From assembly GCA_963706575.1 (NCBI GenBank), contig CAVPNL010000009.1, forward strand, positions 262,183 to 326,182: a stretch of DNA of 64,000 nt. Reading direction: 5' to 3'. Both the position numbers and the translations under genes were made by a program. This DNA is from an uncultured delta proteobacterium (lineage in GTDB: Bacteria > Desulfobacterota > Desulfobacteria > Desulfobacterales > JAHEIW01). The notes beneath the pieces were generated by a model. That model saw only the letters and a program-made list of their open reading frames with translations, did not search any database and was not told where the DNA came from. Shown here in pieces: positions 27,772-46,469 of the stretch (position 1 is the stretch's first letter; the number at the start of each line of letters is the position of its first letter).

Positions 27772-27774
27772 CCC

Positions 27775-28134: not shown

Positions 28135-28202
28135 GCGATTTCAAAATTAGCAGTTCATCTTGGAAGGCAGAGAAAAATGATCCAAAGGTGCTCTAAAGTA
28201 AG

Positions 28203-28334: not shown

Positions 28335-28396
28335 GTTGTTGTAAGCACTTATTCCAAAAGGGGCATAGCCCCTAACATGAAACGGAGGTACCCCCC

Positions 28397-29279
28397 ATGG
28401 CTAAAAAGGTTCAGGGCGTCTTCGCGCCGATCTCAACCCCTTTTATCGATGATGAAGTGGCGTTTGATCAGTTTAAAGAAAATATAAAAAAATACAGCCA
28501 GACGCCGTTAAATGGATATTTGGTCCTCGGCAGCAACGGAGAAAGCAAGAGCCTCACCGAGGACGAGAAGTTGAAACTGCTGGAGATCGTGCTGCAGGAG
28601 AAAGCCGCTCATCAACTGGTCATGGCCGGAACCGGATATGAATCCACACGCCAGACCATCGCCTTTTCGAAAAAGGCGCAGGCAGCTTGGTGCGGATCTG
28701 GTTTCACTGGTTACGCCGTCCTATTTTAAAAAAAGCCTCACAGATGATGCCTTAATCGGATATTACACTCAGGTGGCCGAGGCGCTGAGCATCCCGGTAT
28801 TTGCCTATAATGCCCCGGGATTCACGGGACTGACCCTATCTGCCGCTGTGATTGAAACCATTTCGCAACATCCCAATATCGGGGGGATGAAGGATACATC
28901 TCCGGCCGGGCTTGCCGGTTATCTGGAAGTTTGCGGGGACGATTTTGATGTGCTGGCCGGCAGCATGAACACCCTTTTCATCGGTCTTTCCCTGGGCGCC
29001 TCCGGCGGGGTGATCTCGCTGGCGAATGCATTTCCGGAGCCGTGCTGCGCCTTATATGAGGCCTTCACCGGCGGTGATATCGCCACGGCCCGCCAGGTGC
29101 ATTCCAGGCTTTTTCGTCTGAATAAAGCGGTGTCCGGTGCTTCAGGGGTTGCGGGGGTAAAATATGCCATGGAACTGGGGGGGTATCATGGGGGAAACCC
29201 GCGCCTGCCGCTGCTGCCGATCAAAGACGCCGATAAGCAACGGATTAAAAATGCTGCGGAAGAGGCCGGTGTGCTGTGA
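28397..29279 (+). pseudogene. DapA/NAL-family aldolase (4-hydroxy-2-oxoglutarate aldolase-like), +1 frameshift near 28679
   Basis: FAPISTPF and VLGSNGE, then LGADLVSLVTPSYFK, YNAPGFTG and HPNIGGMKD (Schiff-base Lys). Confidence 0.87.
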
Positions 29280-29309
29280 AAATTAGGTGAAGGGTCGGGG
29301 ATTTTTCCC

Positions 29310-29377
29310 GTCATCCCCGCACAGGCGGGGATCCAAACATAAAAACATTTCTGGATTCCCGCCTGCGCGGGAATGAC
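29310..29377. repeat. REP-like inverted doublet (GTCATYCCCGC.CAGGCGGGRATCCA type)
   Basis: GTCATCCCCGCACAGGCGGGGATCCA ... TGGATTCCCGCCTGCGCGGGAATGAC, inside an outer GTCGGGGATTTTT / AAAAACTTCCCGAC inverted repeat. Confidence 0.75.
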
Positions 29378-29451
29378 AAGTTTTTAATAAAAAAACTTCC
29401 CGACGTCTTAGATGAATACCATTCGCTGAAAGCAAAGGAGGACCGGCAACC

Positions 29452-30474
29452 ATGAAGACCATGGTCCTGTCTCAATACAACACGCCATTGGAAGTACACG
29501 ACAGAGAAATTCCGCGAGCTGAACCCGGAGAAGTTTTGTTGAAAGTAAAGGCCTGCGGTATCTGTCAGACCGATCTTAAAATCATCAGAGGTGCCATTCC
29601 GCCGCCGATCGTGACCCTGCCCCATGTGCTGGGGCACGAGGTGGTGGGAGAAATCGCGGCCGTGGGCAAAAATGTTTGCGGTTTGCAGGAAGGCGATGTC
29701 GGTGTCGTTTACAGCTACGTTGCCTGCCATAACTGCGAGCTGTGCCTGGCCGGACGAGAAAACCTCTGCGTCCACCTTGAGCGTATCGGGTTTGAACGTG
29801 AAGGCGGGTTTACCGAATACTTGAAAGTTCCGGCCTATAATTTTTGTTCATTCAGCAAGGACCGGCCGATTGAAGAAATGGCGATCCTGGCAGATGCCAT
29901 CGGAACCCCCTACCGTGCCATTACCGGTTTGGCGAAGGTTCGGCCGGGCCAGCATGTACTGATCGTCGGTGCTGGCGGTCTGGGGATCCATGCGGTGCAA
30001 ATTGCGAAACTCTGCGGCGCCCATGTGACCGTTGTCGACCTGGATCCCAATGCCCGGGATCTTGCGAGATCCTATGGCGCCGATGAAGCACTTGATCCGG
30101 TTGATGCCGCCGAGGCCATTGCCGATCAGACCGGGGGTCGGGGCGTGGATGCGGTGATTGAAATTGTGGGCTATCCGGAGACGCTGGACTGGTCCCTGCC
30201 GGCCTTAAAAAGCGGCGGCAAGTTAATCCTGGTGGGCTACGCACCGGAGCATCCGTTTGCGCTCAATACGATGATGATGCACTACAATGAATATGAAATT
30301 ATCGGTTGTCGGTTTGTGACCAAAGCGGAACTGCTGGAGCTGATCTCCCTGGTGGAAAACGGCAAGATCAAACCGGTGGTCACCCAAACCTTTCCGTTTG
30401 ACCAGGTCAACGCGGCACTGGACACATTAAAAGAAGGCAAAAGCCTTGGCAGAATCGTATTAGTTTTGGCGTAG
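29452..30474 (+). CDS. Zinc-dependent alcohol dehydrogenase (MDR family)
   Basis: CGICQTD, GHEVVG, CHNCELCLAGRENLC and GAGGLG motifs. Confidence 0.93.
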   Translation: MKTMVLSQYNTPLEVHDREIPRAEPGEVLLKVKACGICQTDLKIIRGAIPPPIVTLPHVLGHEVVGEIAAVGKNVCGLQEGDVGVVYSYVACHNCELCLAGRENLCVHLERIGFEREGGFTEYLKVPAYNFCSFSKDRPIEEMAILADAIGTPYRAITGLAKVRPGQHVLIVGAGGLGIHAVQIAKLCGAHVTVVDLDPNARDLARSYGADEALDPVDAAEAIADQTGGRGVDAVIEIVGYPETLDWSLPALKSGGKLILVGYAPEHPFALNTMMMHYNEYEIIGCRFVTKAELLELISLVENGKIKPVVTQTFPFDQVNAALDTLKEGKSLGRIVLVLA

Positions 30475-30482: not shown

Positions 30483-30651
30483 AGGTTCAAAGGTTCAGGG
30501 TTCCGGATTCAGAAGTTTTAGAATTTAAGTAACAGGTTTCTGACAGCTAAAGAGGGCTATCCTATGCTCGGGTTTTCATTTGTCTTCTGTTCTCTAACCT
30601 CTGAACCTGTGAACGTTGAACCTTTGAACCAGGAGACTGACACCTGAAACC
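30483..30651. repeat. Palindrome of GGTTCA-containing heptamers (family B flanks without the REP core)
   Basis: AGGTTCAAAGGTTCAGGGTTC ... GAACCTGTGAACGTTGAACCTTTGAACC, then CTGACACCTGAAACC. Confidence 0.65.
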
Positions 30652-30700: not shown

Positions 30701-31456
30701 ATGATGACCTACACCATTCGACCCATTTGCACCGGGTACCAGCGGCTGGATAAAGGCTGGTACGCGACATTTCGGCGGGGTCACGGCGAAATTATCGAGC
30801 ACCCCGTATTTGCGTTTCTGATTGAAGGCGGCGGGCGCAAAATACTGGTGGACACCGGTATGAGCGACACCGAGCGATCCCAGAAGTACCATCATGAGGG
30901 GCGTCAGGACCCGGGACAGGCCATCCACGACCAGCTTGAAAGCCTGGGGGTCGGACTGGATGAAATCGAAATCATCATTTTTACGCATCTGCACTGGGAT
31001 CATTGCTACAACATGAAAAAGTTTACCAAAGCCAAACTCTATGTCAGTGAAAGAGAATACCGCTTTGCCTTAAATCCCATACCTTTCTATATGAAGTCTT
31101 ATGAGCATCCATCCCTTGGCATCGGCTGCCCCTGGGAGGGATGTAAATTCAATCTGATCAAGGATGAAGAAGAGGTCGTTGACGGGATTCGCGCGTTTCA
31201 GACACCAGGGCACAGCCCCGGGCATATGGGCGTTGCGGTTCAAACCGAGAAGGGCATTTATGTTATAGCCGGGGATATGGTTTTTATCAGGGAAAATCTG
31301 GAACCGGACGCGGAAACCGGCTGGCCCTTTTATCCGCCGGGCCGATTTTACAATGTTTTAGAATTATGGCACAGTATCGAGGATGTTATCCGGCGGGCGG
31401 ACTACGTCATGTTAACCCACGATCCCTCTCATTTTGAGCAGGAAATATATCCTTAA
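30701..31456 (+). CDS. Metallo-beta-lactamase-fold lactonase (AHL-lactonase-like family)
   Basis: ILVDTG, THLHWDH, TPGHSPGH, IAGD and THD motifs. Confidence 0.9.
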   Translation: MMTYTIRPICTGYQRLDKGWYATFRRGHGEIIEHPVFAFLIEGGGRKILVDTGMSDTERSQKYHHEGRQDPGQAIHDQLESLGVGLDEIEIIIFTHLHWDHCYNMKKFTKAKLYVSEREYRFALNPIPFYMKSYEHPSLGIGCPWEGCKFNLIKDEEEVVDGIRAFQTPGHSPGHMGVAVQTEKGIYVIAGDMVFIRENLEPDAETGWPFYPPGRFYNVLELWHSIEDVIRRADYVMLTHDPSHFEQEIYP

Positions 31457-31470: not shown

Positions 31471-31923
31471 ATGAAAAAGATTGCTATCGGTTGTGATCCC
31501 AATGCCGCTGACCTTAAGGCGGTTGTCATGCAGCAGTTAACCGATCTGGGTTATGAATACGAGGATTATGGAAGTGAGGATCCCATCTATGCCAATGTGG
31601 CTATCAAGGTGGCGGAACAGGTGGCAGCCGGGGTCCATGATCGCGGTATTTTGATTTGCGGAACCGGGATCGGTATGTGCATTACGGCCAACAAGGTTCC
31701 CGGCGTCTATGCCGCCTTATGTGCGGATGCATACTCCACCGAGCGATCCATTAAAAGCAACAACGCCAATATCATGACGCTGGGGTCCCAGGTGACGGGC
31801 TCGGAACTGGCCAAAAGCCTCGTAAAAATATGGATGGGCTCAGAATATGTTCCCGGCGGACGCTCCCAGCCGAAAATTCAGCGCATCTATGACTACGCCA
31901 AAGATTCGAATCAAAAAGGATAG
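31471..31923 (+). CDS. rpiB: RpiB/LacA/LacB sugar-phosphate isomerase (resembles the erythrulose-4-phosphate isomerase subtype)
   Basis: IAIGCD and GILICGTGIGMCITANKVPG; DPNA and SNNAN replace the canonical DHAG and HNxAN. Confidence 0.88.
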   Translation: MKKIAIGCDPNAADLKAVVMQQLTDLGYEYEDYGSEDPIYANVAIKVAEQVAAGVHDRGILICGTGIGMCITANKVPGVYAALCADAYSTERSIKSNNANIMTLGSQVTGSELAKSLVKIWMGSEYVPGGRSQPKIQRIYDYAKDSNQKG

Positions 31924-31933: not shown

Positions 31934-32054
31934 GAGTGACTAAAGTGAACTAAAGTTCGAAGTGACTAAAGTTGATGAATTCTGTCATTTTTAAAAAAAT
32001 GATTGAGCGAAGCGAAACCACAACTTTAGGCATTTTAGATCACTTTAGTCACTC
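31934..32054. repeat. Palindromic element, family C copy 2, between convergent rpiB and RLP (may act as a bidirectional terminator)
   Basis: GAGTGACTAAAGTG ... CACTTTAGTCACTC ends; shared core. Confidence 0.75.
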
Positions 32055-32065: not shown

Positions 32066-33361
32066 TCAGCTGCCGAATTCTTCGATGGCGGCCTTCAGCT
32101 CCGGATGCGTTTTGGCGAATTCTTCTAAAGAAACACCCTGGCTAAAGGCCTCCCAGCCCTGCAGCAAACTGGCGGCCCCGGCTTTGGGACCCATGGGATG
32201 GCCGAAGACGCCCCTTCCCGGAACAATACCAAAATCAATCGTTTTCAGGATCTCATAGAGCTCACCGGTGGTTCCGGCCCATTGGCTGCCGGCGGGAACC
32301 GGCAGGGCGCGTTTCATCTGGCCCAGGGGCTTTAAGCATTCGTTCACATTTTCAAATACTTCCGCATCGGATGTTTTCATGCGGGCCCCGAAGCCGGCCA
32401 TTATAATGACATCAAAACCGACCATGCGTTGCAGCTTGGTGATCAATTTCGTATCGACACCAAAGTTGGGCATCCGGGTAAAGGGTGCGATGAAATCAAA
32501 GTGGGCCACCAGCGGTACCCGGGCGTGTTTACGCACCATGCGCACCGCACTCAAACCCACGGTCATGGTATTGAGCATCAGCGCATTGGCTCCGTTTTGA
32601 ACTGCGATATCGTGCAATGCGGTCAAGCGATCGACCTCATCGGTAATATTGGCCAGATAAATGTTGGGCCGACCGGTGATCTGTTCACATTCCAGCCTGG
32701 CCTTTCCCACTCTGGCAGTGCGTTCGCTTAAAGGAGACCATTCCACATCGCCGAGCATCTCATCGTCCTTGGCAATATCCAGGCCCCCCAGCCAGCTTTC
32801 ACGGGCCAGTTCGGCAAACGGTTCGGGCGGCAGGCCGATATTGGGTTTAATCACGCCGAAAAATAGCGGCCGGTCGTGGACGCCGAGCATATCGCGTAGG
32901 CCCGTGATGCCGAATTTCGGGCCCTCAAAGTGCTGCAGATAGCTGTCGGGAAATTCAATATCCAGTAATTTGATCAACGAAATCCCGGGAGAGTAAAAAG
33001 CGCCTTCCCCGCAGGCCGCTGTTAATAAATTCGGCAGCTTGGGTCCGAAATTGCCGTGCGGATGGGCGATTTTAACCCGACAGATATAGGATTTTGTATC
33101 CGGTGTTGCCGGCAGTGCCAGGGTCGGTTTTTCAAGCTCTGCCTCGACCGCCAGATCGATGACTTTAGCACCGAACTGTCCCCTCAGATCCTCATCAACG
33201 CCCGGGCGTTTCCATTGCGCGGTAGACTGCTCCTGGCAAAGGTGCGCTGCCGCCTCTTCAGGGTCAACAAATGATTCAAAAAGATAGTCGAATACCACAT
33301 AGTCATCCATGTTCAACTTAGATCGATCTGAGAAGAAACCGCTTTTTGTGTCTGTATTCAT
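32066..33361 (-). CDS. RuBisCO-like protein, form IV (IV-Photo / Chlorobium-type clade)
   Basis: EQSTAQWKR, HPHGNFGPKLPNLLTAACGEG, FFGVIKPNIGL, GGLDIAKDDEML, YLANITDEVD and VPGRGVFGHPMGP motifs; no small subunit or PRK nearby. Confidence 0.93.
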   Translation of the reverse strand: MNTDTKSGFFSDRSKLNMDDYVVFDYLFESFVDPEEAAAHLCQEQSTAQWKRPGVDEDLRGQFGAKVIDLAVEAELEKPTLALPATPDTKSYICRVKIAHPHGNFGPKLPNLLTAACGEGAFYSPGISLIKLLDIEFPDSYLQHFEGPKFGITGLRDMLGVHDRPLFFGVIKPNIGLPPEPFAELARESWLGGLDIAKDDEMLGDVEWSPLSERTARVGKARLECEQITGRPNIYLANITDEVDRLTALHDIAVQNGANALMLNTMTVGLSAVRMVRKHARVPLVAHFDFIAPFTRMPNFGVDTKLITKLQRMVGFDVIIMAGFGARMKTSDAEVFENVNECLKPLGQMKRALPVPAGSQWAGTTGELYEILKTIDFGIVPGRGVFGHPMGPKAGAASLLQGWEAFSQGVSLEEFAKTHPELKAAIEEFGS

Positions 33362-33376
33362 CGTTACCTTTCTTTA

Positions 33377-34606
33377 TCATTTCTGGATCAGCCGGTGCAA
33401 TTCATTGACGGCGGTTTCGGCAAACTGGGGATCATTGATATGCATATCAACGACTTCGATGCTGGCCCTGTCAGATGGAAACTTTTTGAAACCTGCTTCC
33501 AGACCTTCTTGAAACCCGGCATCCGATTCGGGCTCATAGATCGGTCCCCCGGCCCGGTTGAGCTGACTGAATCCCTGGCTGGGGACAAAAACCGTCGCAT
33601 ATCCTTTTGATTGTCCCAGCCGTTCAGCAATAAATTTCCCAAGCTCAAACATCTCTAATCGGTTGGCTTTTACATGGGTGTGAATGGGGTTATGAATCAC
33701 ATACTTTCGTTCTAAAATATCAGAAGGGATATCTTCAACCGGTCCGTAGAGCACGATGTCGGCGCAGCCGGGAGCAACGACCTGGGGCACTCCCCGCCGA
33801 CAACTGGCCTGCAGCCTTTTGGCCGTTGCCGGCATGATACCGCCGAATAAATAATCGGTGATGTCATGGGGGCTCAAATCGAAGATACCGGCCAGCTTTC
33901 CAGCCGCGGCCATTTCCTCCATGGCCTGAGCGCCGATGCCGTTACAATGAAAGGCGATGACTTCATAGCCCAGATCCTCAAAAAGCTCTCGGGCATGGTT
34001 GGCACAGGGCGTGGTCACGCCGGCCGACGTCAGCGCCACGGCCGGTTTGGATGCATCATCTGAATCGTAATCCATCTCCACCATTCCGACAACGGCGCCG
34101 GCACCCTCGGCCAGCACCCGCCGGGTGACCGCGTTGAGTCCCAGCACATCGGCGACGGAATGCAGTATCATGATATCCCGGATACCGACAAAGGGCCCAA
34201 AGGTCGCCAGGCCGTTGGCAACCGCCGAAATCATGACCTTGGGAACACCAAAAGGCAGGGCCTGCATCACCGTGGTACCGATTACCGTCCCCTGGACACC
34301 CCCCATGGAGATAATTCCATCCAGGTTTCCCTTTTCATATAATGCTTTGGCCGTTTCCACCGCACCCTGTGTCATGGTACCAATGGCATGGTTCTTGTCA
34401 CCCGTTTTCAAAATTTCTTCAATGGTGGTGTCGGCCGCTTTCGCCACTGCATGTCGGGATACGTCAGGTTCAAAAGCGGGGTCCTTCATAACCCCGCAGT
34501 CGACGACAACCGGTATATGCCCTCTACTCTCAATCAGGTCTTTGACATAAGCGGCTTCGATTTCTTTTGTATCAAGAGTTGCGACAAGGACGATGTGTTT
34601 TGCCAC
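33377..34606 (-). CDS. UPF0261 / Tm-1-like ATP-binding domain protein (paralogue 1)
   Basis: VATLDTK, GGVQGT, ALPFGVPKVMIS, HSVADVLGLN, GVTTPC, FHCNGIG and HINDPQFA motifs; GTG start 34606 after GGGAGG. Confidence 0.9.
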   Translation of the reverse strand: MAKHIVLVATLDTKEIEAAYVKDLIESRGHIPVVVDCGVMKDPAFEPDVSRHAVAKAADTTIEEILKTGDKNHAIGTMTQGAVETAKALYEKGNLDGIISMGGVQGTVIGTTVMQALPFGVPKVMISAVANGLATFGPFVGIRDIMILHSVADVLGLNAVTRRVLAEGAGAVVGMVEMDYDSDDASKPAVALTSAGVTTPCANHARELFEDLGYEVIAFHCNGIGAQAMEEMAAAGKLAGIFDLSPHDITDYLFGGIMPATAKRLQASCRRGVPQVVAPGCADIVLYGPVEDIPSDILERKYVIHNPIHTHVKANRLEMFELGKFIAERLGQSKGYATVFVPSQGFSQLNRAGGPIYEPESDAGFQEGLEAGFKKFPSDRASIEVVDMHINDPQFAETAVNELHRLIQK

Positions 34607-34644
34607 GGATTGTACCTCCCTAATAACCAATAGCGTCTTTGCGT

Positions 34645-35250
34645 TTACCGGGTCTGCCGACAGATTTTTTTGAGTTCCACCAGCCATCCGATCTGGGCGG
34701 TTTCTTCCACCAGTTCGGCATGATGCTCGGCCAGGGTAATGGTCCGGGCCAGGCCGAAAATGCCGTGTTTTGCCTGAACGAAAGCCTTCAGGTCCGCATG
34801 GGCTTTAAGCAGGTCTTCGACCGCCTTTTCAACAGCTTCATCGGCATGACCGTCGACTTTCAGAATCGGGATAATGCCAAGCTTCGATTGGGCATGCAGC
34901 GCCAGCGGTTGAATCTCGTCTGCGTCCTCGGCATAAGCGATGGCCCAGGGTGAGTGGCTGTGAAAGATTCCGTTAACATCGGGTCTCAGGCGGTAGATGG
35001 CCAGATGGGTTCTGATTTCCCGGGAAGGTTTGCCGGGGCCGGCGATCATTTCGCCGTCCAGATTCACCGTCACCAGGTTGTCCATGGTGCACTCGCCAAA
35101 CGAGGTGCCGCTGCCCTTGATAACCACTTGATCTGTGCCGGCCGGGCGTGCGCTCAGGTTGCCCCCGTTTCCGGTTTGCAGCCCGATGGTATAAGCGCGC
35201 CGGGCGCATGCCACAAGCTCCTTTTTCACCTGTTCAATTGGATCCGCCAT
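34645..35250 (-). CDS. Class II aldolase/adducin family protein (FucA/AraD/MtnB superfamily)
   Basis: GNGGNLSAR, KGSG, KPSREIRTHLAIY, FHSHSP, KHGIF and EETAQ motifs. Confidence 0.9.
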   Translation of the reverse strand: MADPIEQVKKELVACARRAYTIGLQTGNGGNLSARPAGTDQVVIKGSGTSFGECTMDNLVTVNLDGEMIAGPGKPSREIRTHLAIYRLRPDVNGIFHSHSPWAIAYAEDADEIQPLALHAQSKLGIIPILKVDGHADEAVEKAVEDLLKAHADLKAFVQAKHGIFGLARTITLAEHHAELVEETAQIGWLVELKKICRQTR

Positions 35251-35264
35251 TAGAATGTGCACCT

Positions 35265-35477
35265 TTATTTGGGTTTACGACGGTGAGCGCCCGGGCCTGA
35301 AATCAAAATAGCACCCACCGGACAGATTGCAGCCGCCTCCTGATTGCAGCCGATCTCATCGACTTCGGGCCTGACAGCCCGGGCTTTAAAATCATTTCCG
35401 CAGACAAAATTATGACAGCGCGTGCAGGCCAGGCAGCCGATGCACTTGCCGGGGTCCACTTCCACCGAAAACGCCAT
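35265..35477 (-). CDS. Small single-cluster ferredoxin
   Basis: KCIGCLAC ... CPVGAI motif; GAGGG RBS; tightly packed in the operon. Confidence 0.82.
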   Translation of the reverse strand: MAFSVEVDPGKCIGCLACTRCHNFVCGNDFKARAVRPEVDEIGCNQEAAAICPVGAILISGPGAHRRKPK

Positions 35478-35485
35478 GCTACCCT

Positions 35486-35848
35486 CTAGTGCTTCACGAT
35501 TTCGATCAGATTGCCATCCGGATCGTTGCAGAACAGATAGTCGGATCCGTCCACGCGCTTTCCCGGCCCGTCTGTTATTTGTATGCCTTGCGCTTCAAGG
35601 GTTTCGATGGTGGCGCCAAAATCTTCAACTTCGATGGCCATGTGTCGCATGGTTTCCGGAATGGTTTCATTCATTACCATCAGATGCAGCTGGCTTGTTT
35701 CACCCACCTGAAACCAGTGGCCTTGAAAGTCAAAGGCCGGTCGTTCGAGGGTTTTTAGCCCCAACACCTCTCTATAAAACCCAATACACTTTTCAAGGTC
35801 TTTAACCACAAGGGCAATGTGATGATAGTCTTTGATGTGAATACTCAT
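35486..35848 (-). CDS. VOC (glyoxalase/bleomycin resistance) family protein
   Basis: YHHIALVVKDLE, FYREVLGL, QLHL, HMAIEVED and DPDGNLIEI motifs. Confidence 0.9.
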   Translation of the reverse strand: MSIHIKDYHHIALVVKDLEKCIGFYREVLGLKTLERPAFDFQGHWFQVGETSQLHLMVMNETIPETMRHMAIEVEDFGATIETLEAQGIQITDGPGKRVDGSDYLFCNDPDGNLIEIVKH

Positions 35849-35858
35849 GGGAATACCT

Positions 35859-36263
35859 CTATGATGATTGTATTTCAGTCGTCCACGCAATTGCCTCTAT
35901 TTCAATTAAAAAGTCTTCATGAACTAAATCCGCTATAACCGTGCTGCGCGCAGGGAATCCGTTTTTAAAATATTGCCTGTAGATTTCGTTATACTCCGCA
36001 TAATTGGATAGATCCTTCAAAAAGACGGTGGTTTTAAGGATGTTTTCCAGTGAACTTCCGGCTGATTGCAGGATGGTTTTTAGATTCTTGAGTATCAAAT
36101 GCAGTTGTGCGGCGAAACTTTCGGGTGTCTCCTGTGTTTGAGGATCCATAGCCACCTGACCCGCCACAAAAATTAAATTTCCTGCCTGGGTATAGGTTGA
36201 ATACGGGGCCCGTGGAGCTGGGACACCATCAACTTTTGCAATTTTCTTCATCTTAGGCCTCAT
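35859..36263 (-). CDS. RidA/YjgF/UK114 family enamine/imine deaminase
   Basis: APYS, FVAGQV, KTTVFL, NEIY, FPARS (catalytic Arg) and IEIEAIA motifs. Confidence 0.92.
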   Translation of the reverse strand: MRPKMKKIAKVDGVPAPRAPYSTYTQAGNLIFVAGQVAMDPQTQETPESFAAQLHLILKNLKTILQSAGSSLENILKTTVFLKDLSNYAEYNEIYRQYFKNGFPARSTVIADLVHEDFLIEIEAIAWTTEIQSS

Positions 36264-37498
36264 TTTGCTGGGTAATGGGTTGCCATCATATCCATAAACG
36301 CGTCAATCACCGGGTCAATAAATTCGGGATCGTTGATATGGGCATCCAGTTCAGCCAGCGGTATGCCATTGTCGAGGTGCTTTTTGAGCGCATCGATAAA
36401 TACCTGGTTGCCTTCGGGTTCCCAGTGGGGCAGGCCCTCCCGGTCCGGAAATGAAAATCCTTTCAGCGGTATGAACACTTTCACCGGACCTTTGGCCCGG
36501 TTGAGCTTGGCGGCAATTTCTTTGGCGACTTCAATGAGCTCTTCGGGCAATAAGCGCACTAGGGTTAGATGCGGGTTGTAATTGAAATGCTTGCGGCGGC
36601 GCATATCCTCTGAAAGACTCTCCGGAGACCCCTGGACCGTATAATTCCCGCTGCCCGGCGCCACCACCTGGGGTAACCCCATGGCTGCGGCGGCGGTGAG
36701 ACGATCGGCGCGGATAGCGCCATGCAGTCCGCCCAGATAGCGATCACCGATTTCGTGCAGATTCAAATCCAGAACGCCCTGAAAAGCGCCTTCTGAAATC
36801 ATGTCTTCCATGGCGATCCCGCCGGTGCCGTTTTGATGAAAGGTGACCACCTCGTAACCGTTGTCTTCCAGAATGTCTTTGGCGCGCAGTGCACCGGGTG
36901 TGGTGGTTCCCAGCATGGACATGGCCACCGGAATCCCCTCCGGTTCTTGCAGGTCGCCCGTGAAGTTTTGAACCATTCCGCAAATCGCTCCGGCAGCGTT
37001 TTGCAAAATCTGCTTGCTGAGAAAGTTCAGACCCTGAAGATCAGAGACCGTATGCATAATGGTTAGATCCTTGGTTCCGACGTAGAACCCGAACTGGTGC
37101 GGTCCGTTGGCCACCGTGGAGGCCATTAACCGGGGAACACCAGTAGGAAGCGCGCGCATGGCGGCACTGGCGATTTCAGTCCCCTGGGCGCCGCCGATAC
37201 CGATCACGCCAAAAATACGCCCCTGGTCATGAAGCTCCTTGGCCAGGCTTGCGGCGCCCTGGCACATAATCTCGGTGCACTCCCGTTTGTCCCCTCTGGC
37301 CAGCGCTTCTTCGAGCGGTGTCCCACCTCGGTCAGCCACTTCTTTTTGGGAGATATCCACCTTGCCTCTGGGCGGCGCCAGAATCCCGGTATCCATGACG
37401 ATCACCTTAAACCCATCGGATTCAATGCACGATTTTAAAAAGAGTGCTTCATCTTCTTTGGTGTCATGGGTGGCGATGAGTAAAATCGTTTTATCCAT
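36260..37498 (-). CDS. UPF0261 / Tm-1-like ATP-binding domain protein (paralogue 2)
   Basis: IATHDTK, GGAQGT, ALPTGVP, GTTTPG, FHQNGTGG and HINDPEF motifs. Confidence 0.9.
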   Translation of the reverse strand: MDKTILLIATHDTKEDEALFLKSCIESDGFKVIVMDTGILAPPRGKVDISQKEVADRGGTPLEEALARGDKRECTEIMCQGAASLAKELHDQGRIFGVIGIGGAQGTEIASAAMRALPTGVPRLMASTVANGPHQFGFYVGTKDLTIMHTVSDLQGLNFLSKQILQNAAGAICGMVQNFTGDLQEPEGIPVAMSMLGTTTPGALRAKDILEDNGYEVVTFHQNGTGGIAMEDMISEGAFQGVLDLNLHEIGDRYLGGLHGAIRADRLTAAAAMGLPQVVAPGSGNYTVQGSPESLSEDMRRRKHFNYNPHLTLVRLLPEELIEVAKEIAAKLNRAKGPVKVFIPLKGFSFPDREGLPHWEPEGNQVFIDALKKHLDNGIPLAELDAHINDPEFIDPVIDAFMDMMATHYPAK

Positions 37499-37514
37499 GG
37501 CGTTCTCCTTTTAT

Positions 37515-37659
37515 AGGTGTCAGGTGTCACGTTTTAGAGGACAGAGATCAGAGGTCAGACGACAGAAGACAGATGGGAAGTAGGGTTGGCCTCCGTGCCG
37601 ATCTCTGGACGGCGGGCACAGAGGCCCGCCCTACTTCTGAAAGCTGACACCTGACACCT
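37515..37659. repeat. Family B element: REP-like doublet (core 37577-37637) inside AGGTGTC/GACACCT heptamer arms
   Basis: GAAGTAGGGTTGGCCTCCGTGCCG ... GGCGGGCACAGAGGCCCGCCCTACTTC. Confidence 0.75.
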
Positions 37660-37680
37660 AAAATAAGTGTGCGATTAAAC

Positions 37681-38751
37681 TCATTCATTGGACTTTACAA
37701 CCACCTTCACCGCCCCGTCGATGCGTTTGACAAACGTTTCAAAGGCGGTGTTGATTTCATCCAGAGGGAAGGTGTGGGTCACATAAGGTTTCAGGGTGAC
37801 TTTGCCGGAGCCCAGCAACGAAACCGCTCTGGCGACATTGGACCATCCTTCACCCCTGACGCTGTGGATGGATTTATTTTTCAACAAAAGGTCTGTAAAA
37901 TCAACTAAAACCGGCTCATGCGGCATCCCCAGCATCAGTATTTTGCCCATGGGTTTGGCCATCTTTATGGCCATCATGGGGGCATCGCTGGCGCCCGAGG
38001 ATTCCACGACCAGGTCGGCACCGATGCCGCCGGTTTCCTGCAGGACCACCTCGGTTGCATTTTCCTCGTGGATGTTGATCAAGCGGTCGGCACCGGTTTC
38101 GGCGCCTTTGTTGAGCCGCGAAGCCCGGGTGCCGATTAAAAAGACTTTCTCGGCACCGAGGGCTTTTGCCACCTGAGACGAGATAAGCCCCAGGGGACCG
38201 GGTCCGATGACCACGACCTGGTTGCCGGCCACATAGCCGCCGATAGTTTCAAACCCGTACAGAACACATCCCAGATTGGTGATCAAGGCGGCCTCATTAA
38301 AATCGATGTGATCCGGGATGGGATGAACGGTATTGATATTGTTGGTCACATATTGGGCAAAACCGCCATTGGAGGTCATGCCGTTGGCGCGGTGTTTTGC
38401 GGTACCGTAATTGAGACAGGCCGTATAGTTGCCCACCCGGCAATTCTTGCAGCGCATACAGCCCAGATGGGCTTCAACGGCAACCCGATCACCCACCCTG
38501 AATTCATCCACGCCTTCTCCCAGGGCAGCCACGATGCCGGCGTATTCGTGGCCGGGGGTAAAATTGCCATAGGGGGGTTGTCCCGGCAGGGGTTTGTCCA
38601 TCAACGCCACATCGGTGCTGCAGCAGGCGCAGGATTCGACTTTCAGCAAGACTTCCATGGGGCCGGGTTGCGGGGTGGGGATCTCCCGGATCTCCAGGTG
38701 ATTGCGTCCCATTAAGAGAGCCGCTTTCATGGTTTCAGGTACGGTCGACAT
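37681..38751 (-). CDS. Zinc-dependent alcohol/polyol dehydrogenase (MDR, threonine/sorbitol DH-like)
   Basis: CCSTD, PGHEYAG, CMRCKNCRVGNYTAC, GPGPLG and THTFPL motifs. Confidence 0.92.
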   Translation of the reverse strand: MSTVPETMKAALLMGRNHLEIREIPTPQPGPMEVLLKVESCACCSTDVALMDKPLPGQPPYGNFTPGHEYAGIVAALGEGVDEFRVGDRVAVEAHLGCMRCKNCRVGNYTACLNYGTAKHRANGMTSNGGFAQYVTNNINTVHPIPDHIDFNEAALITNLGCVLYGFETIGGYVAGNQVVVIGPGPLGLISSQVAKALGAEKVFLIGTRASRLNKGAETGADRLINIHEENATEVVLQETGGIGADLVVESSGASDAPMMAIKMAKPMGKILMLGMPHEPVLVDFTDLLLKNKSIHSVRGEGWSNVARAVSLLGSGKVTLKPYVTHTFPLDEINTAFETFVKRIDGAVKVVVKSNE

Positions 38752-38830
38752 AAGCTTTTGCTCCTCTTCTTTTTAATCCGGCTACACAATATCCTATCCT
38801 CAAAAGACTTCAAGGCTAGTGCGCTTGAGT

Positions 38831-38937
38831 AAAAGTGACTAAAGTTGATGAATTCTGTCATTTTAAAAAAAAGATTGAGCGAAGCGAAACCACAACTTTA
38901 GGCACTTTAGGCATTTTAGCTCACTTTAGTCACTTTT
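38831..38937. repeat. Palindromic element, family C copy 3; overlaps the last codons and stop of the FAD oxidoreductase at 38926-40410
   Basis: AAAAGTGACTAAAG ... CTTTAGTCACTTTT; core nearly identical to copy 2. Confidence 0.75.
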
Positions 38938-40410
38938 TCTGCACACGCTGACCTGATGTGAACCGAATCCTTTCTTGGTCACCTGGCCGGGGCTAGCGCC
39001 CTGCACCTGGGTCAGATAATTTATAACCGAAATGCCGCAAAAGCCGCCCTGACAGCGACCCATGCCGGCCCGGGTGACGTGTTTGACGGCATCCATGGTG
39101 TCGGCTCCCCGTCGAACAGCTTCTATAACTTCTGCTTCGCTTACCTGTTCGCAGCGGCAGACGATATGCCCATATTTCGCGTTGGATTGGATCAGTCTGT
39201 GTTTTTCTGTGGCAGTGGCCGTCTCAAAACGACGCCAACCGATTCGATTCGGATTAAACGGTTTTTTCTCCTCCAATCTCAGACCGGAAGCCGCAAGCAG
39301 GGTGATCAAATACTCGGCAATGGCCGGCGCAGCGGTCAAACCCGGGGAGCCGATGGCCGCATGGATAACGCCTGCTGCGGTTTTTGAATGATTAATATAA
39401 AAATCACTCCCCGGGGCCATATTATTTTCAGAGCGGATACCGGCAAAGGCTGTGATGACATCTTTTTCAGAAATTGCCGGTACCAGCTTTTTACCCATAT
39501 GGAGCACTTCTCGAAGCTTGTCACGGCTGACAGTCGTATCCGCCTTGTGGTCGGGAGAGGTGAAATAGCCCAGCCCGATTAAGAGATTGCCGTGGGCCGT
39601 TGGGGTCACCAGTTCACTGTGATCTTTCCCGTAAGTTCCATAGATCATGCTATCCAACAGGTTCGAAGCGGATTTATCCAGAATCAGCATGGTGCCTTTG
39701 GTAAGGACCAGTTGAAGATCGCTGTCGCCCACCATCCTGGCAATTTCGTCCACAAACAGCCCGGCGGCGTTAATGATATACCGGGTCTTGAAACGGCCGC
39801 GTGGTGTAATGACCTCAAAGTCGAAATCGCCATTGCAGATGATATCCGTAACTGCTGAATTCAAATACAGGTCCAGGCCGTTTTGCACGGCGTTTTCGGT
39901 TAAAGCAAATGTCCATTCGGTGGCATAGATACCGCCGCTGACATTTTTGCCGTACAATGCGCCAATGGCCTTTTTACTGGCATGGGGTTCGATTTGCCGA
40001 ATTTTTTCGGGACCGATGATGACGTGACCCGCAGAAACATGATTATCATGCGCCCAAACGCTTGCGGCTTTTAATTTTGCCAATTGATTTGAATCGAACG
40101 CCACAAATATCTCATCAACGGCTTTAAAGGCCACATCCAGTTCGTCGGCCAGTTTTTGGTAGCGCGTGGCGGCATTGTGAGAAAGACGGGTGCGCAGGGG
40201 CCCGGACGGAAACATCAATGGAGAATGCAGCATGCAGGGATTTGCTTTTGACACCCCGAAACCGGAGAAGGGTTCTTTTTCCAACAACGCAAAGCGGCCC
40301 TCATACCGGCAGAGTTCCCTGGCGATCATGGAGCCGACAATTCCGGCTCCGATAATGATGACATCATAATCTTCCTGATGCCGTGGTTGGCTGCTGGTGG
40401 TTTGTGACAT
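38926..40410 (-). CDS. FAD-dependent oxidoreductase with BFD-like [2Fe-2S] domain (second GlpA/LhgO-like large subunit)
   Basis: DVIIIGAGIVG, IINAAGLFVD, PTAHGNLLIG, CRCEQVSEAE and TRAGMGRCQGGFC motifs; clear paralogue of 25030-26517. Confidence 0.9.
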   Translation of the reverse strand: MSQTTSSQPRHQEDYDVIIIGAGIVGSMIARELCRYEGRFALLEKEPFSGFGVSKANPCMLHSPLMFPSGPLRTRLSHNAATRYQKLADELDVAFKAVDEIFVAFDSNQLAKLKAASVWAHDNHVSAGHVIIGPEKIRQIEPHASKKAIGALYGKNVSGGIYATEWTFALTENAVQNGLDLYLNSAVTDIICNGDFDFEVITPRGRFKTRYIINAAGLFVDEIARMVGDSDLQLVLTKGTMLILDKSASNLLDSMIYGTYGKDHSELVTPTAHGNLLIGLGYFTSPDHKADTTVSRDKLREVLHMGKKLVPAISEKDVITAFAGIRSENNMAPGSDFYINHSKTAAGVIHAAIGSPGLTAAPAIAEYLITLLAASGLRLEEKKPFNPNRIGWRRFETATATEKHRLIQSNAKYGHIVCRCEQVSEAEVIEAVRRGADTMDAVKHVTRAGMGRCQGGFCGISVINYLTQVQGASPGQVTKKGFGSHQVSVCRKSD

Positions 40411-40464
40411 CGGACCTGTTGGGTTCGCTTTAAAGCGGTCGCCGGTTTGACACCCGCCGGAGGA

Positions 40465-40830
40465 TTATTCAACCCGTGCCATCGGCGCATATTTGTGATC
40501 GATCAGTTCATTTCTGGGGGGGCTGAAGACATCAACCAACAGCACCTCTTCATCCAGCACTTTCCATGAGTGCGCTCGGTTCGATTCAATCAGATAGCCA
40601 TCTCCAGACCCCAATAACATCTCCTGGCTGTCGTCCGGCAACCTCAGGATAATGTTGCCCTCGATAATATACCCGCTTTGCTCGGCCGTATGGGTTTCTG
40701 TCGGCCATTCCTGATGCGGCTGAAAGCGATAAAGGATCATCATCAGGCGTTTGCCGCTGACCAATTTACGGGAGATATTTTCGTTGACGGTCTCCCACGG
40801 AATTTGACGCCAGTTTACACGGGCATTCAT
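40465..40830 (-). CDS. Cupin domain protein (KdgF-like)
   Basis: THTAEQSGYIIEG, IESNRAH and VDVFSPPR motifs; start moved to 40830. Confidence 0.85.
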   Translation of the reverse strand: MNARVNWRQIPWETVNENISRKLVSGKRLMMILYRFQPHQEWPTETHTAEQSGYIIEGNIILRLPDDSQEMLLGSGDGYLIESNRAHSWKVLDEEVLLVDVFSPPRNELIDHKYAPMARVE

Positions 40831-40983: not shown

Positions 40984-41014
40984 GCACACATGTGCATATA
41001 TTGCACATGTGTGC
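40984..41014. promoter_or_regulatory. Perfect 13-5-13 palindromic operator between the divergent RLP and AOR operons
   Basis: GCACACATGTGCA-tatat-TGCACATGTGTGC; degenerate copy at 14560-14590. Confidence 0.65.
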
Positions 41015-41085: not shown

Positions 41086-41640
41086 ATGGCAAAGAAAAGA
41101 CGAATTGTTTATACGAATCGGCCATGGGAGGCCACCGGAATATGCAGTGGATGTCGCCTGTGTGAACTTTACTGCTCGCTTCAGGCAAATGGAACCTTCA
41201 ACCCCTACCGGTCGCGGGTGCGTGTTGTGGAAATGGCGACCGGCATAGACATTCCGGTCACCTGCCAGCAGTGCCAGGATCCGGCCTGCCAGGCCGCCTG
41301 CGAATTTGATGCGATTGTTTTTGACCCCAAGCTCAAAATCGTTGTGGTAAACGAAGAAAATTGCACCAGTTGCCAGGCCTGCGTCGGTGCCTGCCCTTAC
41401 GGCATTATCACAATGGATCCGGTTAGCAACAAGGCAATCAAATGCAACCTTTGCGGTGACAGTGAACCCGCTTGTGTTGAAATCTGCCCTTCCCGGGTGC
41501 TCGGGGCCCTGGATGACCCGGCGGTTGCCGAATTTAACCGCCGAAAAACCGCGGCCCTATTGGCAATTGAAGATGAGATTTTGCGAGGCAGACCGGGTGG
41601 CGAGGATCCGGTCATGAAAAAACTGGAAAAGAAAGGTTAG
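41086..41640 (+). CDS. 4Fe-4S dicluster (polyferredoxin) subunit of the aldehyde oxidoreductase
   Basis: CSGCRLCELYC, CQQCQDPACQAAC, CTSCQACVGACPYG and CNLC...CVEICP motifs. Confidence 0.92.
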   Translation: MAKKRRIVYTNRPWEATGICSGCRLCELYCSLQANGTFNPYRSRVRVVEMATGIDIPVTCQQCQDPACQAACEFDAIVFDPKLKIVVVNEENCTSCQACVGACPYGIITMDPVSNKAIKCNLCGDSEPACVEICPSRVLGALDDPAVAEFNRRKTAALLAIEDEILRGRPGGEDPVMKKLEKKG

Positions 41641-41646
41641 CCGAAA

Positions 41647-43590
41647 ATGAAGAGCGCTCATAACTGTTATGCCGGCAAAATTTTAAGGATTGATCTAACT
41701 TCCGGTTCTATCAACAGTGAGGCCTTGGACGGAGATCTGGTTGAACCGCTGATCGGCGGTCGCGGGATTGCTTCAAAAATACTCTATGATGAAGTCCCGC
41801 CGGAAATAGATCCTTTTGATCCGGAAAATTTGCTGATCTTTGCACCGGGTGCTCTTCATGGGACAGGGGTTCCGGCTGCCAGCCGGACCACGTTGACCTG
41901 TCGCTCGCCGTTGACCCGTATGCACGGGGATGGACATTCCGGCGCGCAATGGGGCGGTGAGCTCAAGCGGGCAGGATATGATGTGCTGGTGATAAAAGGC
42001 CGGGCGCAAAAACCGGTCACCCTTTTCATCGATGATGATCGCGTCGAGCTTGCGGATGCCGATCGGCTCTGGGGAATGTTGACTTCCCGGACGCATACCG
42101 CCTTGCGGGATGAAACAAACATTGCGGATCTGCAGACGGTCTGCATCGGGCCTGCCGGGGAAAATCGCGTGCGGCTATCCGCCGTTTTCCACAACGGCGC
42201 CGATAAAGGCGTTAACGCCCGTTGCGGGATGGGCGCGGTTATGGGCGCCAAGAATTTGAAAGCGATCGCCACCCGCGGCACCAAGGACATCGGGGTGGTT
42301 GATATTGAGTCCTTAAAGGCCGCTTACAAAGAATATGTGGAAATCATCAATACCGATCCTCACCCGGTGGGGGGAACCCGCTACGGGACCTGTCGGTTTA
42401 TGTATCACCGGGTGCAGTTCGGAATTCACGGGGCTGAAAATTGGAATTACGGCGCATACCCCTGGGAAAAGCTGGATCCTGAAATTTTTCGCAGCGACTA
42501 TCAGGTCAAGGCCGGCTCATGTGTGGCCTGCCCCATCCGCTGTCGCCGGGATTATCGGGTGGTCTCCGGTCCATATGGCGGCACGACGGCTAAAGTCGAG
42601 TGGGAAACGATCGCGCGGTCGCTGACCTGTGGAATCAAAGAGCCTGAAGGTGTCATTGCCTGGGCCAACATTTGCAATCACTACGGATTGGATATTGAAG
42701 GCACGGGTGATACCGTTGCGTTTGCCATGGAATGCTTTGAAAACGGGATCATCACCGAAAAGGACACCGACGGTCTGAGCCTGAGGTTTGGCGATACCGA
42801 GGCCTTTCTTGAAATCACCCGCCGCATTGCCATGCGCCAAGGCGATTTGGCCGATACCTTGGCCGAGGGCACCAAACGGGCTGCCGAAACCATCGGCGCC
42901 GGCAGCGAACGCTTTGCCATGCACGTCAAAGGCGGTGAAATGACCGCCGGTGATCCCCGCGGGATGCCGGTGCGGGCGGTGAGCTATGCCACATCCACCC
43001 GCGGCAGTGACCATCTTCGCTCCAACCCCTATATTGAAGAAATTATGAAGCCCGAAGAGGCCCTCAAATGGTGGGGCAGTGAAGAAGCTGCCGATATTGC
43101 CAACGGCCTGAAAGGCAAGGGACGCATGCTGAAGTTCAGCGAGGACCTGGTCACCATCGGAGATATTCTCGGGTTGTGCAAATTTGCCTTTTATCGATCC
43201 GCTACCTTTCCCTGGCTTTATCAAAAAGGCGTTACCCTGGCCACCCGATTCTATAATGCCTGTTCGGGTCGGAGCCTGAGCGAGGAGGAGATGTTGATGA
43301 CCGGCGAGCGGGTCTGGAATATCGAGAAGGCCTATAATACCCGTTGCGGCGCCACGCGGGCCGACGACACCATACCCCAGCGGTTTTTTAAAGAAGCGCT
43401 TAAAGGCGGGGGTCCCAGCGGGGGGACTGTGGTGGATCGCGAAAAATTTGAAGCCATTCTGAATGAATATTATGAAGACCGCAAATTTGACCCGGCAACA
43501 GGGCTCCAGACCCGGGCCGGCCTGGAGCGGCTGGGACTTAATGACATTGCGGATGATCTTGCAGCGCGGGGCAAACTTTTCGGCAAATAA
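41647..43590 (+). CDS. Aldehyde:ferredoxin oxidoreductase family protein (tungstopterin AOR/WOR)
   Basis: YAGKILRIDL, SPLT, CIGPAGEN, RCGMGAVMGAKNLKAI, CVACPIRC, AMECFENG, DPR, YATSTRGSDH and LGLCKF motifs. Confidence 0.95.
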   Translation: MKSAHNCYAGKILRIDLTSGSINSEALDGDLVEPLIGGRGIASKILYDEVPPEIDPFDPENLLIFAPGALHGTGVPAASRTTLTCRSPLTRMHGDGHSGAQWGGELKRAGYDVLVIKGRAQKPVTLFIDDDRVELADADRLWGMLTSRTHTALRDETNIADLQTVCIGPAGENRVRLSAVFHNGADKGVNARCGMGAVMGAKNLKAIATRGTKDIGVVDIESLKAAYKEYVEIINTDPHPVGGTRYGTCRFMYHRVQFGIHGAENWNYGAYPWEKLDPEIFRSDYQVKAGSCVACPIRCRRDYRVVSGPYGGTTAKVEWETIARSLTCGIKEPEGVIAWANICNHYGLDIEGTGDTVAFAMECFENGIITEKDTDGLSLRFGDTEAFLEITRRIAMRQGDLADTLAEGTKRAAETIGAGSERFAMHVKGGEMTAGDPRGMPVRAVSYATSTRGSDHLRSNPYIEEIMKPEEALKWWGSEEAADIANGLKGKGRMLKFSEDLVTIGDILGLCKFAFYRSATFPWLYQKGVTLATRFYNACSGRSLSEEEMLMTGERVWNIEKAYNTRCGATRADDTIPQRFFKEALKGGGPSGGTVVDREKFEAILNEYYEDRKFDPATGLQTRAGLERLGLNDIADDLAARGKLFGK

Positions 43591-43609
43591 AATTGGAGGC
43601 CGGGTTCTA

Positions 43610-43906
43610 ATGCGGATACGCGTGCATCTTTATCCGCCGTTAAACAACGCCGCCGGCCGCAGCCGGCTGGAGGTTGTGCTGGATGGTGATGACGATTCGT
43701 TGCAGGCACTGATCGACAAAATGGTGGAACAATTCGGCCATCAATTTCGCAAACTGCTGTACGATGATCGCGGTCGCATTGTTGGCGGCTGGTGTGCGTT
43801 TATCAATCAAAAACGCCCCGTCCATTTTAATCAACCGGACGCATTGGCCACTTCGCTTTGTGACGGTGACGAGATTTCTTTTTTGCTGGCGCTGGCCGGC
43901 GGGTGA
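43610..43906 (+). CDS. MoaD/ThiS family sulfur carrier protein
   Basis: Beta-grasp size, LCDGDEISFL and C-terminal AGG; GGAGG RBS; follows the AOR gene. Confidence 0.88.
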   Translation: MRIRVHLYPPLNNAAGRSRLEVVLDGDDDSLQALIDKMVEQFGHQFRKLLYDDRGRIVGGWCAFINQKRPVHFNQPDALATSLCDGDEISFLLALAGG

Positions 43907-43954
43907 GCACCGGCGACCTTTCCGGTTAAGGCTTGGCAGGAGTAGGAGGCGATA

Positions 43955-45271: not shown

Positions 45272-45278
45272 TTAATCC

Positions 45279-46410: not shown

Positions 46411-46469
46411 AATAAATTATACATGTAGGGCATCCTTGCCGGGGGAATAGAGAATTAACAGGACATGAT

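Follow-up and report, generated by a model that had tools for sequence, protein, structure and literature searches.

What does a RuBisCO-like protein (RLP) related to the IV-Photo enzymes of phototrophs do in a bacterium that does not photosynthesize? The question is raised by a 64,000-nucleotide stretch (the window) of contig CAVPNL010000009.1, from the genome of an uncultured member of the Desulfobacterales (GCA_963706575.1), in which ten co-directional minus-strand genes at 32066-40830 end in an RLP gene. Form IV was founded on the IV-Photo RLP, for which a 2018 study still listed no settled reaction (PMC5893883). A preliminary description of the window reported the ten genes and a series of RLP motifs and substitutions, all of which are present, and proposed enolate chemistry on a phosphorylated keto-sugar, which our results support as an inference. 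We find that the RLP belongs to a locus that is conserved across three phyla and serves neither CO2 fixation nor methionine salvage. The route encoded there probably ends in D-erythrulose 4-phosphate, whether reached by isomerization or by decarboxylation, and we tentatively propose that the RLP makes this compound via a C4 enediolate, as a LerI-like isomerase acting near the end of sugar-acid catabolism. The conserved core consists of five genes, two of them outside the ten-gene run, most of which is local:

30701-31456, plus strand: metallo-beta-lactamase-fold hydrolase of the AHL-lactonase/4-pyridoxolactonase type, predicted to open a sugar lactone; outside the run
31471-31923, plus strand: isomerase of the RpiB family and DerI/EryI (D-erythrulose-4-phosphate isomerase) type, its gene convergent on that of the RLP; outside the run
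32066-33361, minus strand: RLP, 431 aa, of an HFD+AGSQ catabolic subtype related to IV-Photo
33377-34606, minus strand: UPF0261 (MarK/Tm-1 family) protein, predicted kinase, GTG start; the copy that is orthologous across phyla
34645-35250, minus strand: class II aldolase-family protein of its own subfamily, predicted to catalyse C-C cleavage or decarboxylation

The gene set as first described stopped short of the DerI-type RpiB and the lactonase-type hydrolase, the most informative partners, which lie beyond the RLP on the other strand. Its statement that the RLP has no photosynthetic or Calvin-cycle context extends to the host genome (91.8% complete, 6.4% contamination), in which no type I or type II reaction centre and no PRK was found. 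The RLP is the only RuBisCO-family gene of this genome, dsrA scores over its cut-off, and the organism is a non-photosynthetic bacterium with sulfate-reduction genes. The closest named relatives are Desulfobacterales metagenome-assembled genomes (MAGs), at 84-94%, and the distribution of the RLP gene is patchy, with matches at 73-94% in five of 40 relatives and no close match in 300 sampled genomes of the phylum.

Gene context was compared in 160 loci, the best-scoring 80 of 345 genome loci and the best-scoring 80 of 290 metagenome loci, many of them short, which were sorted by two RLP motifs. The subtype of the window, with HFD and AGSQ, accounts for 85 of these loci and is accompanied by the lactonase-type hydrolase in 50, UPF0261 in 48, RpiB in 44, the class II protein in 37 and YjbQ in none. 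The GGSD+HxP subtype (48 loci) has YjbQ in 40 and LsrF in 8, while the HxP+AGSQ subtype (19 loci) has a PEP-hydrolase-like gene in 12 and an FMN reductase in 16, with RpiB, the hydrolase and the class II protein all absent; two further loci combine GGSD and HFD, with YjbQ, and the remaining six are cut or odd. The suggestion that HFD and AGSQ mark a different substrate from that of the Chlorobium enzyme, whose variants HFPFI and PGGSDS are borne out by the 1TEL alignment, is thus strengthened, in that the motifs co-vary with partner genes across the 160 loci. The family thus falls into three gene contexts according to two short motifs, and findings for one subtype should not be transferred untested to another.

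The core holds together over considerable evolutionary distance, and the neighbourhood is not the local arrangement that the preliminary description had allowed for. At least one core partner is present in 49 of the 53 HFD+AGSQ loci of at least 8 kb. When five Chloroflexota loci with an RLP fusion were extended, GH38, a Zn-dependent dehydrogenase (Zn-ADH), the class II protein and UPF0261 were found just past the 10-kb edge in all five, and counterparts from other lineages had as their best matches in the genome of the window its class II protein (57% to Chloroflexota), the RLP-adjacent UPF0261 (59%), the hydrolase (67%) and the SorC-type regulator (34%). Class II orthologues (43-91% identity) were found in 24 of 37 RLP genomes, against none above 39% in the 300-genome sample of the phylum; for the hydrolase the figures were 28 of 37 and two of 300, those two at 46-47%. 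The neighbouring dehydrogenases, first taken as the makers of the substrate, proved not to belong to the core: the GlpA-like, VOC and ferredoxin-like genes co-occur only with RLPs at least 83% identical, and Zn-ADH was rejected as a core gene, its best matches lying elsewhere in the genome at 30-42% and not being orthologous across loci. The dehydrogenases are variable entry genes, and entry genes differ by lineage; one lineage adjoins ascorbate genes, and other loci carry GH38, Gfo/Idh/MocA and ordinary sugar transporters.

By sequence and fold, the RLP stands nearest to the IV-Photo enzymes. It is 57-62% identical to the Chlorobaculum and Rhodopseudomonas IV-Photo structures; its leading Protein Data Bank (PDB) matches are 1TEL (with 1YKW; E 1.5e-176) and 2QYG (1.9e-171), followed by 3NWR at 7.6e-58, and its AlphaFold model (pLDDT 91.5) gives TM scores of 0.96-0.97 to 1TEL and 2QYG at 57-60% identity. 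Mapping against three form I and one form II RuBisCO sequences placed K172, N174, K198/D200/E201, H287, F288, R327 and R383 of the RLP at RuBisCO K175, K177, K201/D203/E204, H294, R295, K334 and G404, respectively. The RLP has the RuBisCO fold and KDDE metal site of a form IV protein and lacks carboxylase residues. Its metal-carbamate site and bases are kept (K172, K198, D200, E201 and H287), including the K175 and H294 equivalents reported initially; the GEG motif described as an Asn123-to-Glu change is also present, although Asn123 aligns to E119/G120 around a one-residue insertion. The distal (second) phosphate site is replaced by F288, I291 and I320, and the first phosphate site is remodelled (Q49, W50, R327, S359, G382 and R383). 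From these changes we infer a substrate that would carry one phosphate and have a short or uncharged far end.

The IV-Photo identity proposed at the outset stands as an affinity, which includes the same replacements as in Chlorobaculum tepidum 1TEL/1YKW and Rhodopseudomonas palustris RLP2 (2QYG) at RuBisCO sites 65, 177, 295, 298, 327, 334, 381 and 404. It does not extend to nesting among the phototroph enzymes: in an 83-row quick tree, the 41 phototroph-type sequences, from Chlorobi and purple bacteria, formed one clade (SH-aLRT 100, branch 0.33) that excluded the window RLP, the root being unreliable owing to a single long outgroup branch, and we claim no direction from the catabolic to the phototroph type. 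Nor does the RLP possess the HFP and GGSD motifs of the phototroph type, having HFD and AGSQW instead, or a YjbQ or LsrF neighbour. None of the curated cut-offs for OiaX, MtnW or form III is reached. The OiaX model (NF042437) is the best NCBIfam match but scores 241 bits against a cut-off of 700, with Thr65, Arg295, Lys334 and Gly404 all replaced in the RLP; the MtnW/YkrW models score 198 against 409 bits (NF007095) and 156 against 514 (TIGR03332), with no methionine-salvage neighbours. A DeepYkr 5-methylthioribulose 1-phosphate (MTRu-1-P) isomerase would have KDDH where the RLP has KDDE, and the RLP is 28% identical to an RLP1-type sequence from Rhodopseudomonas. Membership of the YkrW/MtnW or DeepYkr groups, against which the first interpretation was to be judged, was accordingly not found.

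One of the most informative partners is the convergent RpiB gene, the sole RpiB of the host genome. In a 46-row tree, all 22 RLP-linked RpiB rows grouped (100/99) with the RpiBs of rhizobial apionate and erythritol operons, which themselves exceed the cut-off of the DerI model, and all 22 lack His10, His99 and His134, which are kept in the 19 rows outside this clade; the window RpiB is of the DerI/EryI type by both clade membership and the absence of these histidines. Each of the 44 RpiBs among the 160 loci is of the DerI type, lies within 700 nt of the RLP gene and accompanies an RLP of the HFD+AGSQ subtype. In 10 loci the RpiB is fused in one frame to the RLP, and the fusion is also found in P0092. 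DerI converts D-erythrulose 4-phosphate to D-erythrose 4-phosphate and acts after LerI (PMC10733421). A LerI-type TIM over the cut-off (293) was found in none of 38 genomes searched with a model that scores two reference operon TIMs at 424 and 414, these being called LerI/EryH from operon position and from PMC13753588; the nearest score, 287, occurred in a genome (G032) with an RLP outside the core context. Each of the 10 fusion genomes has a single TIM. Second TIMs were considered as LerI candidates and rejected: copies in Desulfocapsaceae score about 100 bits and are unlinked, and a TIM following the RLP in an HxP+AGSQ locus (L004) is of the housekeeping type. A TIM directly after the RLP is also seen in L221.

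The remaining core proteins are predicted to act in sugar-acid catabolism. UPF0261 is present in the window as the Tm-1-like genes initially listed; work published in 2025 on one member, MarK, established it as a family of ATP-dependent kinases (PMC12624787). The core UPF0261 protein matches MarK (9MPY) with E 9e-64, contains both Pfam domains, keeps the DTK motif with the ATP-site lysine and has equivalents of two of the three substrate-site histidines (His219 and His304, not His348); it differs from MarK in its sugar-catabolic, anaerobic context. DTK is present in 13 of 15 full-length UPF0261 neighbours. We predict that the protein is a kinase with a sugar substrate. The hydrolase resembles AHL lactonases, and its metal motif is intact. 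In the class II protein, Asn29, Ser71, Glu73 and His92/94/155 of FucA are retained, and Tyr113 and the C-tail are missing; this pattern of retained Zn triad and catalytic Glu is shared with YgbL and is not diagnostic of OtnC. The protein is 23-27% identical to FucA, AraD and YgbL, forms its own group apart from YgbL and reaches no NCBIfam cut-off, the OtnC model (NF043034) giving 85 bits against 250. Its top PDB match (E 6e-21) is 6BTD, which we take to be 5-deoxyribulose-1-phosphate aldolase.

Based on these assignments, variable entry genes would oxidize a sugar or polyol to a lactone and 3-oxo acid, the metallo-hydrolase would open the lactone, and the UPF0261 protein would phosphorylate the opened product with ATP. 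The class II protein may then remove one carbon by OtnC-like decarboxylation, the resulting tetrulose phosphate being either erythrulose 1-phosphate or L-erythrulose 4-phosphate. At its remodelled first site (Q49, W50, R327, S359, G382 and R383), the RLP would bind the phosphate, then form the C4 2,3-enediolate at Mg2+ and re-protonate it to D-erythrulose 4-phosphate, a job done elsewhere by the TIM-fold LerI/EryH, and the adjacent DerI-type isomerase would deliver D-erythrose 4-phosphate to the pentose phosphate pathway. On chemical grounds, the same C4 2,3-enediolate should arise from deprotonation of erythrulose 1-phosphate, epimerization of L-erythrulose 4-phosphate and decarboxylation of a branched C5 3-oxo-acid phosphate, and its protonation next to the phosphate carbon should yield D-erythrulose 4-phosphate. 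Precedents exist for several steps: a carbonyl shift on a ketose 1-phosphate is known RLP chemistry (RLP1; PMC5893883), OtnC-type class II enzymes decarboxylate 3-oxo-acid phosphates of up to six carbons (PMC12994016), and a D-ribonate (pentonate) route leads to D-erythrulose 4-phosphate (PMC13753588). We favour isomerization because the linked or fused RpiBs are all of the DerI type while no LerI-type TIM exceeds the cut-off, because the co-inherited class II protein could take the C-C step, and, relative to decarboxylation, because the four OiaX residues named above are all replaced.

Several observations weigh against this proposal. The genomes are all MAGs, and related genomes and loci are not independent by kinship, so that no p-value can be attached to the associations. 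All four core partners lie within 10 kb in only 16 of the 53 long HFD+AGSQ loci. With the rhizobial DerI model (NF051858, cut-off 240), the window RpiB scores 143 bits and the fused domain 191-195, compared with 258 and 253 for the references. The missing LerI is weak evidence, since the four DerI-like genes detected in a sample of 400 Chloroflexota lack both a TIM and an RLP within 14-17 kb (these genomes were not searched for LerI); two of them sit with DhaKL or FGGY kinases. One genome (G026) has the RLP, hydrolase, class II protein and kinase together with only a canonical RpiB. The substrates of MarK are phenols rather than sugars, and the class II protein could not be assigned to any known enzyme, its tree being unresolved and its identity to every reference 23-27%. 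Finally, three genomes (G024, G025 and G029) have an RLP beside DerI with no class II orthologue at E 1e-30, which implies that the RLP could be a decarboxylase there, and in L035 the RLP follows a four-carbon-acid-sugar (DUF1537-type) kinase, as OiaX does.

The last two points belong to the alternative that survives best, though we consider it on balance unlikely: that the RLP decarboxylates a phosphorylated C5 3-oxo acid (such as 3-oxo-isoapionate phosphate or 3-oxo-pentonate 5-phosphate) straight to D-erythrulose 4-phosphate, dispensing with LerI and leaving the class II protein to act as an epimerase or aldolase elsewhere in the route. OiaX, the 3-oxo-isoapionate-4-phosphate decarboxylase, is not only the best NCBIfam match of the RLP but also resides with a kinase, a TIM and DerI in the apionate operon (oiaX-kinase-TIM-derI), so that both RLPs are found in a sugar-acid catabolic setting with a kinase and a DerI-type RpiB close by. 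The two proteins share a QW after the Ser379 loop, the invariant Arg327 and Arg383 could hold a carboxylate, and the lactonase is the commonest partner of the HFD+AGSQ RLPs. However, the RLP is 32% identical to OiaX and falls far below its cut-off with four active-site residues changed, UPF0261 replaces the DUF1537 kinase, and the core has no LerI-type TIM. Furthermore, the hydrolase, class II protein and UPF0261 kinase occur in G279 (L164, G279:C43:1000-20500), beside Fe-ADH, aldehyde:ferredoxin oxidoreductase (AOR), short-chain dehydrogenase/reductase (SDR), transporter and cyclase-family genes, with RLP and RpiB absent within 19.5 kb, suggesting that the trio cleaves alone. This locus is a sister pathway, and it suggests that the core comprises two modules, a lactonase-kinase-cleavage trio and an RLP-DerI pair.

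It is also conceivable, if rather improbable, that the product is not a tetrose, the DerI-type protein using another open-chain sugar phosphate and the RLP shifting the carbonyl of a pentulose or hexulose 1-phosphate to supply either that protein or the class II aldolase. Loss of His99 in an RpiB signals an acyclic substrate and says nothing on chain length, the DerI cut-off is not reached, and GlpA-like and polyol-type dehydrogenases with ribose-type binding proteins occur in several loci. Conversely, the RpiBs nest with enzymes of erythritol and apionate operons, and F288, I291 and I320 fill the distal site, which would suit a short substrate. The binding proteins were no guide to the substrate, giving generic ribose-type matches only, with the window binding protein under every cut-off.

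Scavenging of vitamin C-type breakdown products (2,3-diketo-L-gulonate, carboxypentonate or L-erythroascorbate), with the RLP performing RuBisCO-like hydration and C-C cleavage or converting L- to D-tetrulose phosphate, has little probability. In the Desulfocapsaceae loci L005, L033 and L036, the core adjoins UlaG, UlaD and UlaE over cut-off without a dehydrogenase of its own, diketogulonate yields L-erythrulose, erythroascorbate and carboxypentonolactones (PMC5398285), and the window has a UlaG-like gene at 52772-53851, below cut-off; but Ula genes flank that one lineage only, the other loci having the GH38, Gfo/Idh/MocA and sugar transporter genes mentioned above. Methionine or 5'-deoxyadenosine salvage, by a 2,3-diketo-5-methylthiopentyl-1-phosphate enolase or MTRu-1-P isomerase, is scarcely credible: salvage RLPs also lose the second phosphate site and the class II protein does match 6BTD, but the MtnW cut-offs fail, no MtnA/MtnK cluster is among the recurring neighbours, uptake systems flank the genes, and the R. 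palustris IV-Photo enzyme (RLP2) showed no detectable MTRu-1-P activity and had no assigned role as of 2018 (PMC5893883).

Compared with known systems, the proposed isomerase would do the work of LerI in the LerI/EryH-DerI/EryI tetritol module for erythritol, L-threitol and apionate (PMC10733421), with which the locus shares a linked DerI-type isomerase, except that a RuBisCO fold would take the step. A Brucella-type erythritol route was rejected: the TIM-barrel neighbour of 307 aa is not EryC, and EryB has no match among the neighbours at 1e-10. With the tetronate and D-ribonate routes (dehydrogenase, OtnI/OrnI, kinase, and OtnC decarboxylase or DerK) the locus shares the logic of 3-oxo acid, kinase and class II decarboxylase, but it has another kinase family, an added lactonase and RLP, and a class II protein 26% identical to YgbL/OtnC, below cut-off. 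Our literature search, which did not extend to subscription journals or theses, returned no paper that connects RLPs of the IV-Photo type with DerI, UPF0261 or a lactonase. The locus would outline a sugar-acid route, so far undescribed, of Desulfobacterota, Chloroflexota and Spirochaetota in sediments, and it leads us to predict that UPF0261, of which one member has been characterised, includes kinases acting on sugars. For work on its function it provides an endpoint (the DerI-type isomerase, fused to the RLP in 10 genomes), a small set of candidate substrates and an established E. coli selection where the RLP could take the place of lerI.

What, then, does the locus say of the phototroph enzymes? 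IV-Photo-like RLPs of non-phototrophs are in print for Parcubacteria and Micrarchaeota (PMC6389311), while PMC7844134 describes the cluster as phototroph-only, and passages of 10.1101/2025.11.05.686826 and PMC7895386 contain nothing on IV-Photo function. The window RLP falls outside the phototroph clade and has other partners, DerI, the lactonase, the kinase and the class II protein rather than YjbQ or LsrF, and its reaction need not equal that of the Chlorobaculum enzyme. The gene-context route to IV-Photo function envisaged in the preliminary description is therefore sound in its conserved catabolic context and indirect as to Chlorobaculum. In 42 loci YjbQ directly precedes the RLP, often near idi, dxs, polyprenyl synthase or puf genes, and YjbQ and LsrF are mutually exclusive in all 48 phototroph-type loci. 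An aldolase/SDR fusion and LsrF over cut-off (59% to E. coli LsrF) precede the RLP in Chlorobi, the LsrF orthologue standing immediately before it in all eight such loci, and queries with LsrG and LsrK returned nothing in the four Chlorobi genomes searched. The carbonyl shift made by LsrG involves the same pair of carbons, counted from the phosphate. This adjacency without LsrG or LsrK, together with the shift made by LsrG, provides a lead to a doubtful but far-reaching idea: that the whole IV-Photo family may consist of ketose-1-phosphate C2/C3 carbonyl-shift isomerases using the enolization half-reaction of RuBisCO, which would have begun in anaerobic sugar-acid catabolism, would here replace LerI and be fused to DerI, would supply the LsrF thiolase with a diketo substrate in green sulfur bacteria, and would work with YjbQ beside isoprenoid genes in purple bacteria. 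If true, it would settle which reaction the Chlorobaculum enzyme catalyses and provide a first sugar substrate for UPF0261. An other-clade RLP (33%) in L273 (G772:C709) also adjoins an LsrF homologue (67%) and a Zn-ADH, and a third RLP-LsrF pairing occurs in L007.

In the HLP/HFP+AGSQ loci (L004, L008, L012, L029 and L221-L250), the RLP is accompanied by PEP-hydrolase-like TIM barrels, two or three per locus, together with FMN reductase, UPF0261 and ComB-like phosphatase genes. Core partners are absent from the DNA examined around other-clade RLPs in relatives (L145 and L271-L273), and a profile search of cluster representatives added no context.

The rest of the ten-gene run and its flanks comprise the following features:

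18358-30474, plus strand: convergent operon before the hydrolase and DerI genes, with a SorC/DeoR-type regulator, branched-chain-type ABC transporter, cupin, GlpA-like, oxidoreductase and DUF1667 genes, DHDPS-family lyase and Zn-ADH; several frameshifts, not seen in relatives, where the genes are intact
35265-35477, minus strand: 70-aa Cys-rich ferredoxin-like open reading frame, named from its Cys pattern only; local
35486-35848, minus strand: VOC/glyoxalase-family protein; local
35859-36251, minus strand: RidA-family protein, TIGR00004 over cut-off; local, absent from several close relatives
36260-37498, minus strand: another UPF0261 protein, 41% identical to the core copy and likewise with DTK
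37681-38751, minus strand: Zn-ADH, a variable entry gene
38926-40410, minus strand: FAD/BFD-[2Fe-2S] GlpA-like dehydrogenase, 52% to the copy at 25030-26517; local
40465-40830, minus strand: cupin (PF07883), first gene of the run; local
40984-41014, no strand: perfect 13-bp inverted repeat with a 5-nt spacer, between the RLP operon and the divergent AOR genes; possible operator
41086-43906, plus strand: divergent AOR genes, possibly part of the entry route

The open reading frame first called a ferredoxin gene is present and is kept in relatives at 53-89%, but has no Pfam match at 1e-5 and no NCBIfam match at 1e-6. The ten-gene run is interrupted twice, by gaps of about 180 nt, so that its transcription as one unit is not established. 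Promoter scanning gave results at chance (10 found versus 10.3 expected), terminator scanning was at or below chance, and the 13-bp inverted repeat has no second exact copy within the window. RNA-library contigs of relatives cover the region; such contigs cannot demonstrate transcription, and we make no claim of expression. Short intergenic repeats (30540-30630, 31935-32050, 37520-37680 and 38775-38925) attract many contigs and resemble dispersed repeat elements. Frameshifted genes at 20766-22318, 26514-27771, 28397-29279 and 9889-11179 (ABC ATPases, oxidoreductase, DHDPS-family and DctM) are probably assembly errors, since the oxidoreductase and DHDPS-family genes are intact in L002/L003.

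Beyond the inverted repeat, 41086-49024 encodes AOR, a MoaD-like protein, a LarA-family racemase, a DUF6282 amidohydrolase, an NAD-dependent dehydrogenase and an IlvD/Edd dehydratase. This block recurs, at 68-77%, next to a related hydrolase in G012 (L181), and AOR adjoins homologous hydrolases in L164, L169 and L181. Two further UPF0261 genes of the six in the genome are in the window, at 49140-52682 and 60710-61993, one with a PEP-hydrolase-like gene and a ComB-like phosphatase; in close relatives this block directly abuts the RLP operon, which makes 41086-49024 a possible insertion in the present genome. A split transketolase pair some 4 kb ahead of the window (G000:C9:256557-258232), 58% and 44% identical to the pair in a DerI-containing plasmid operon, may be part of the same catabolic island.

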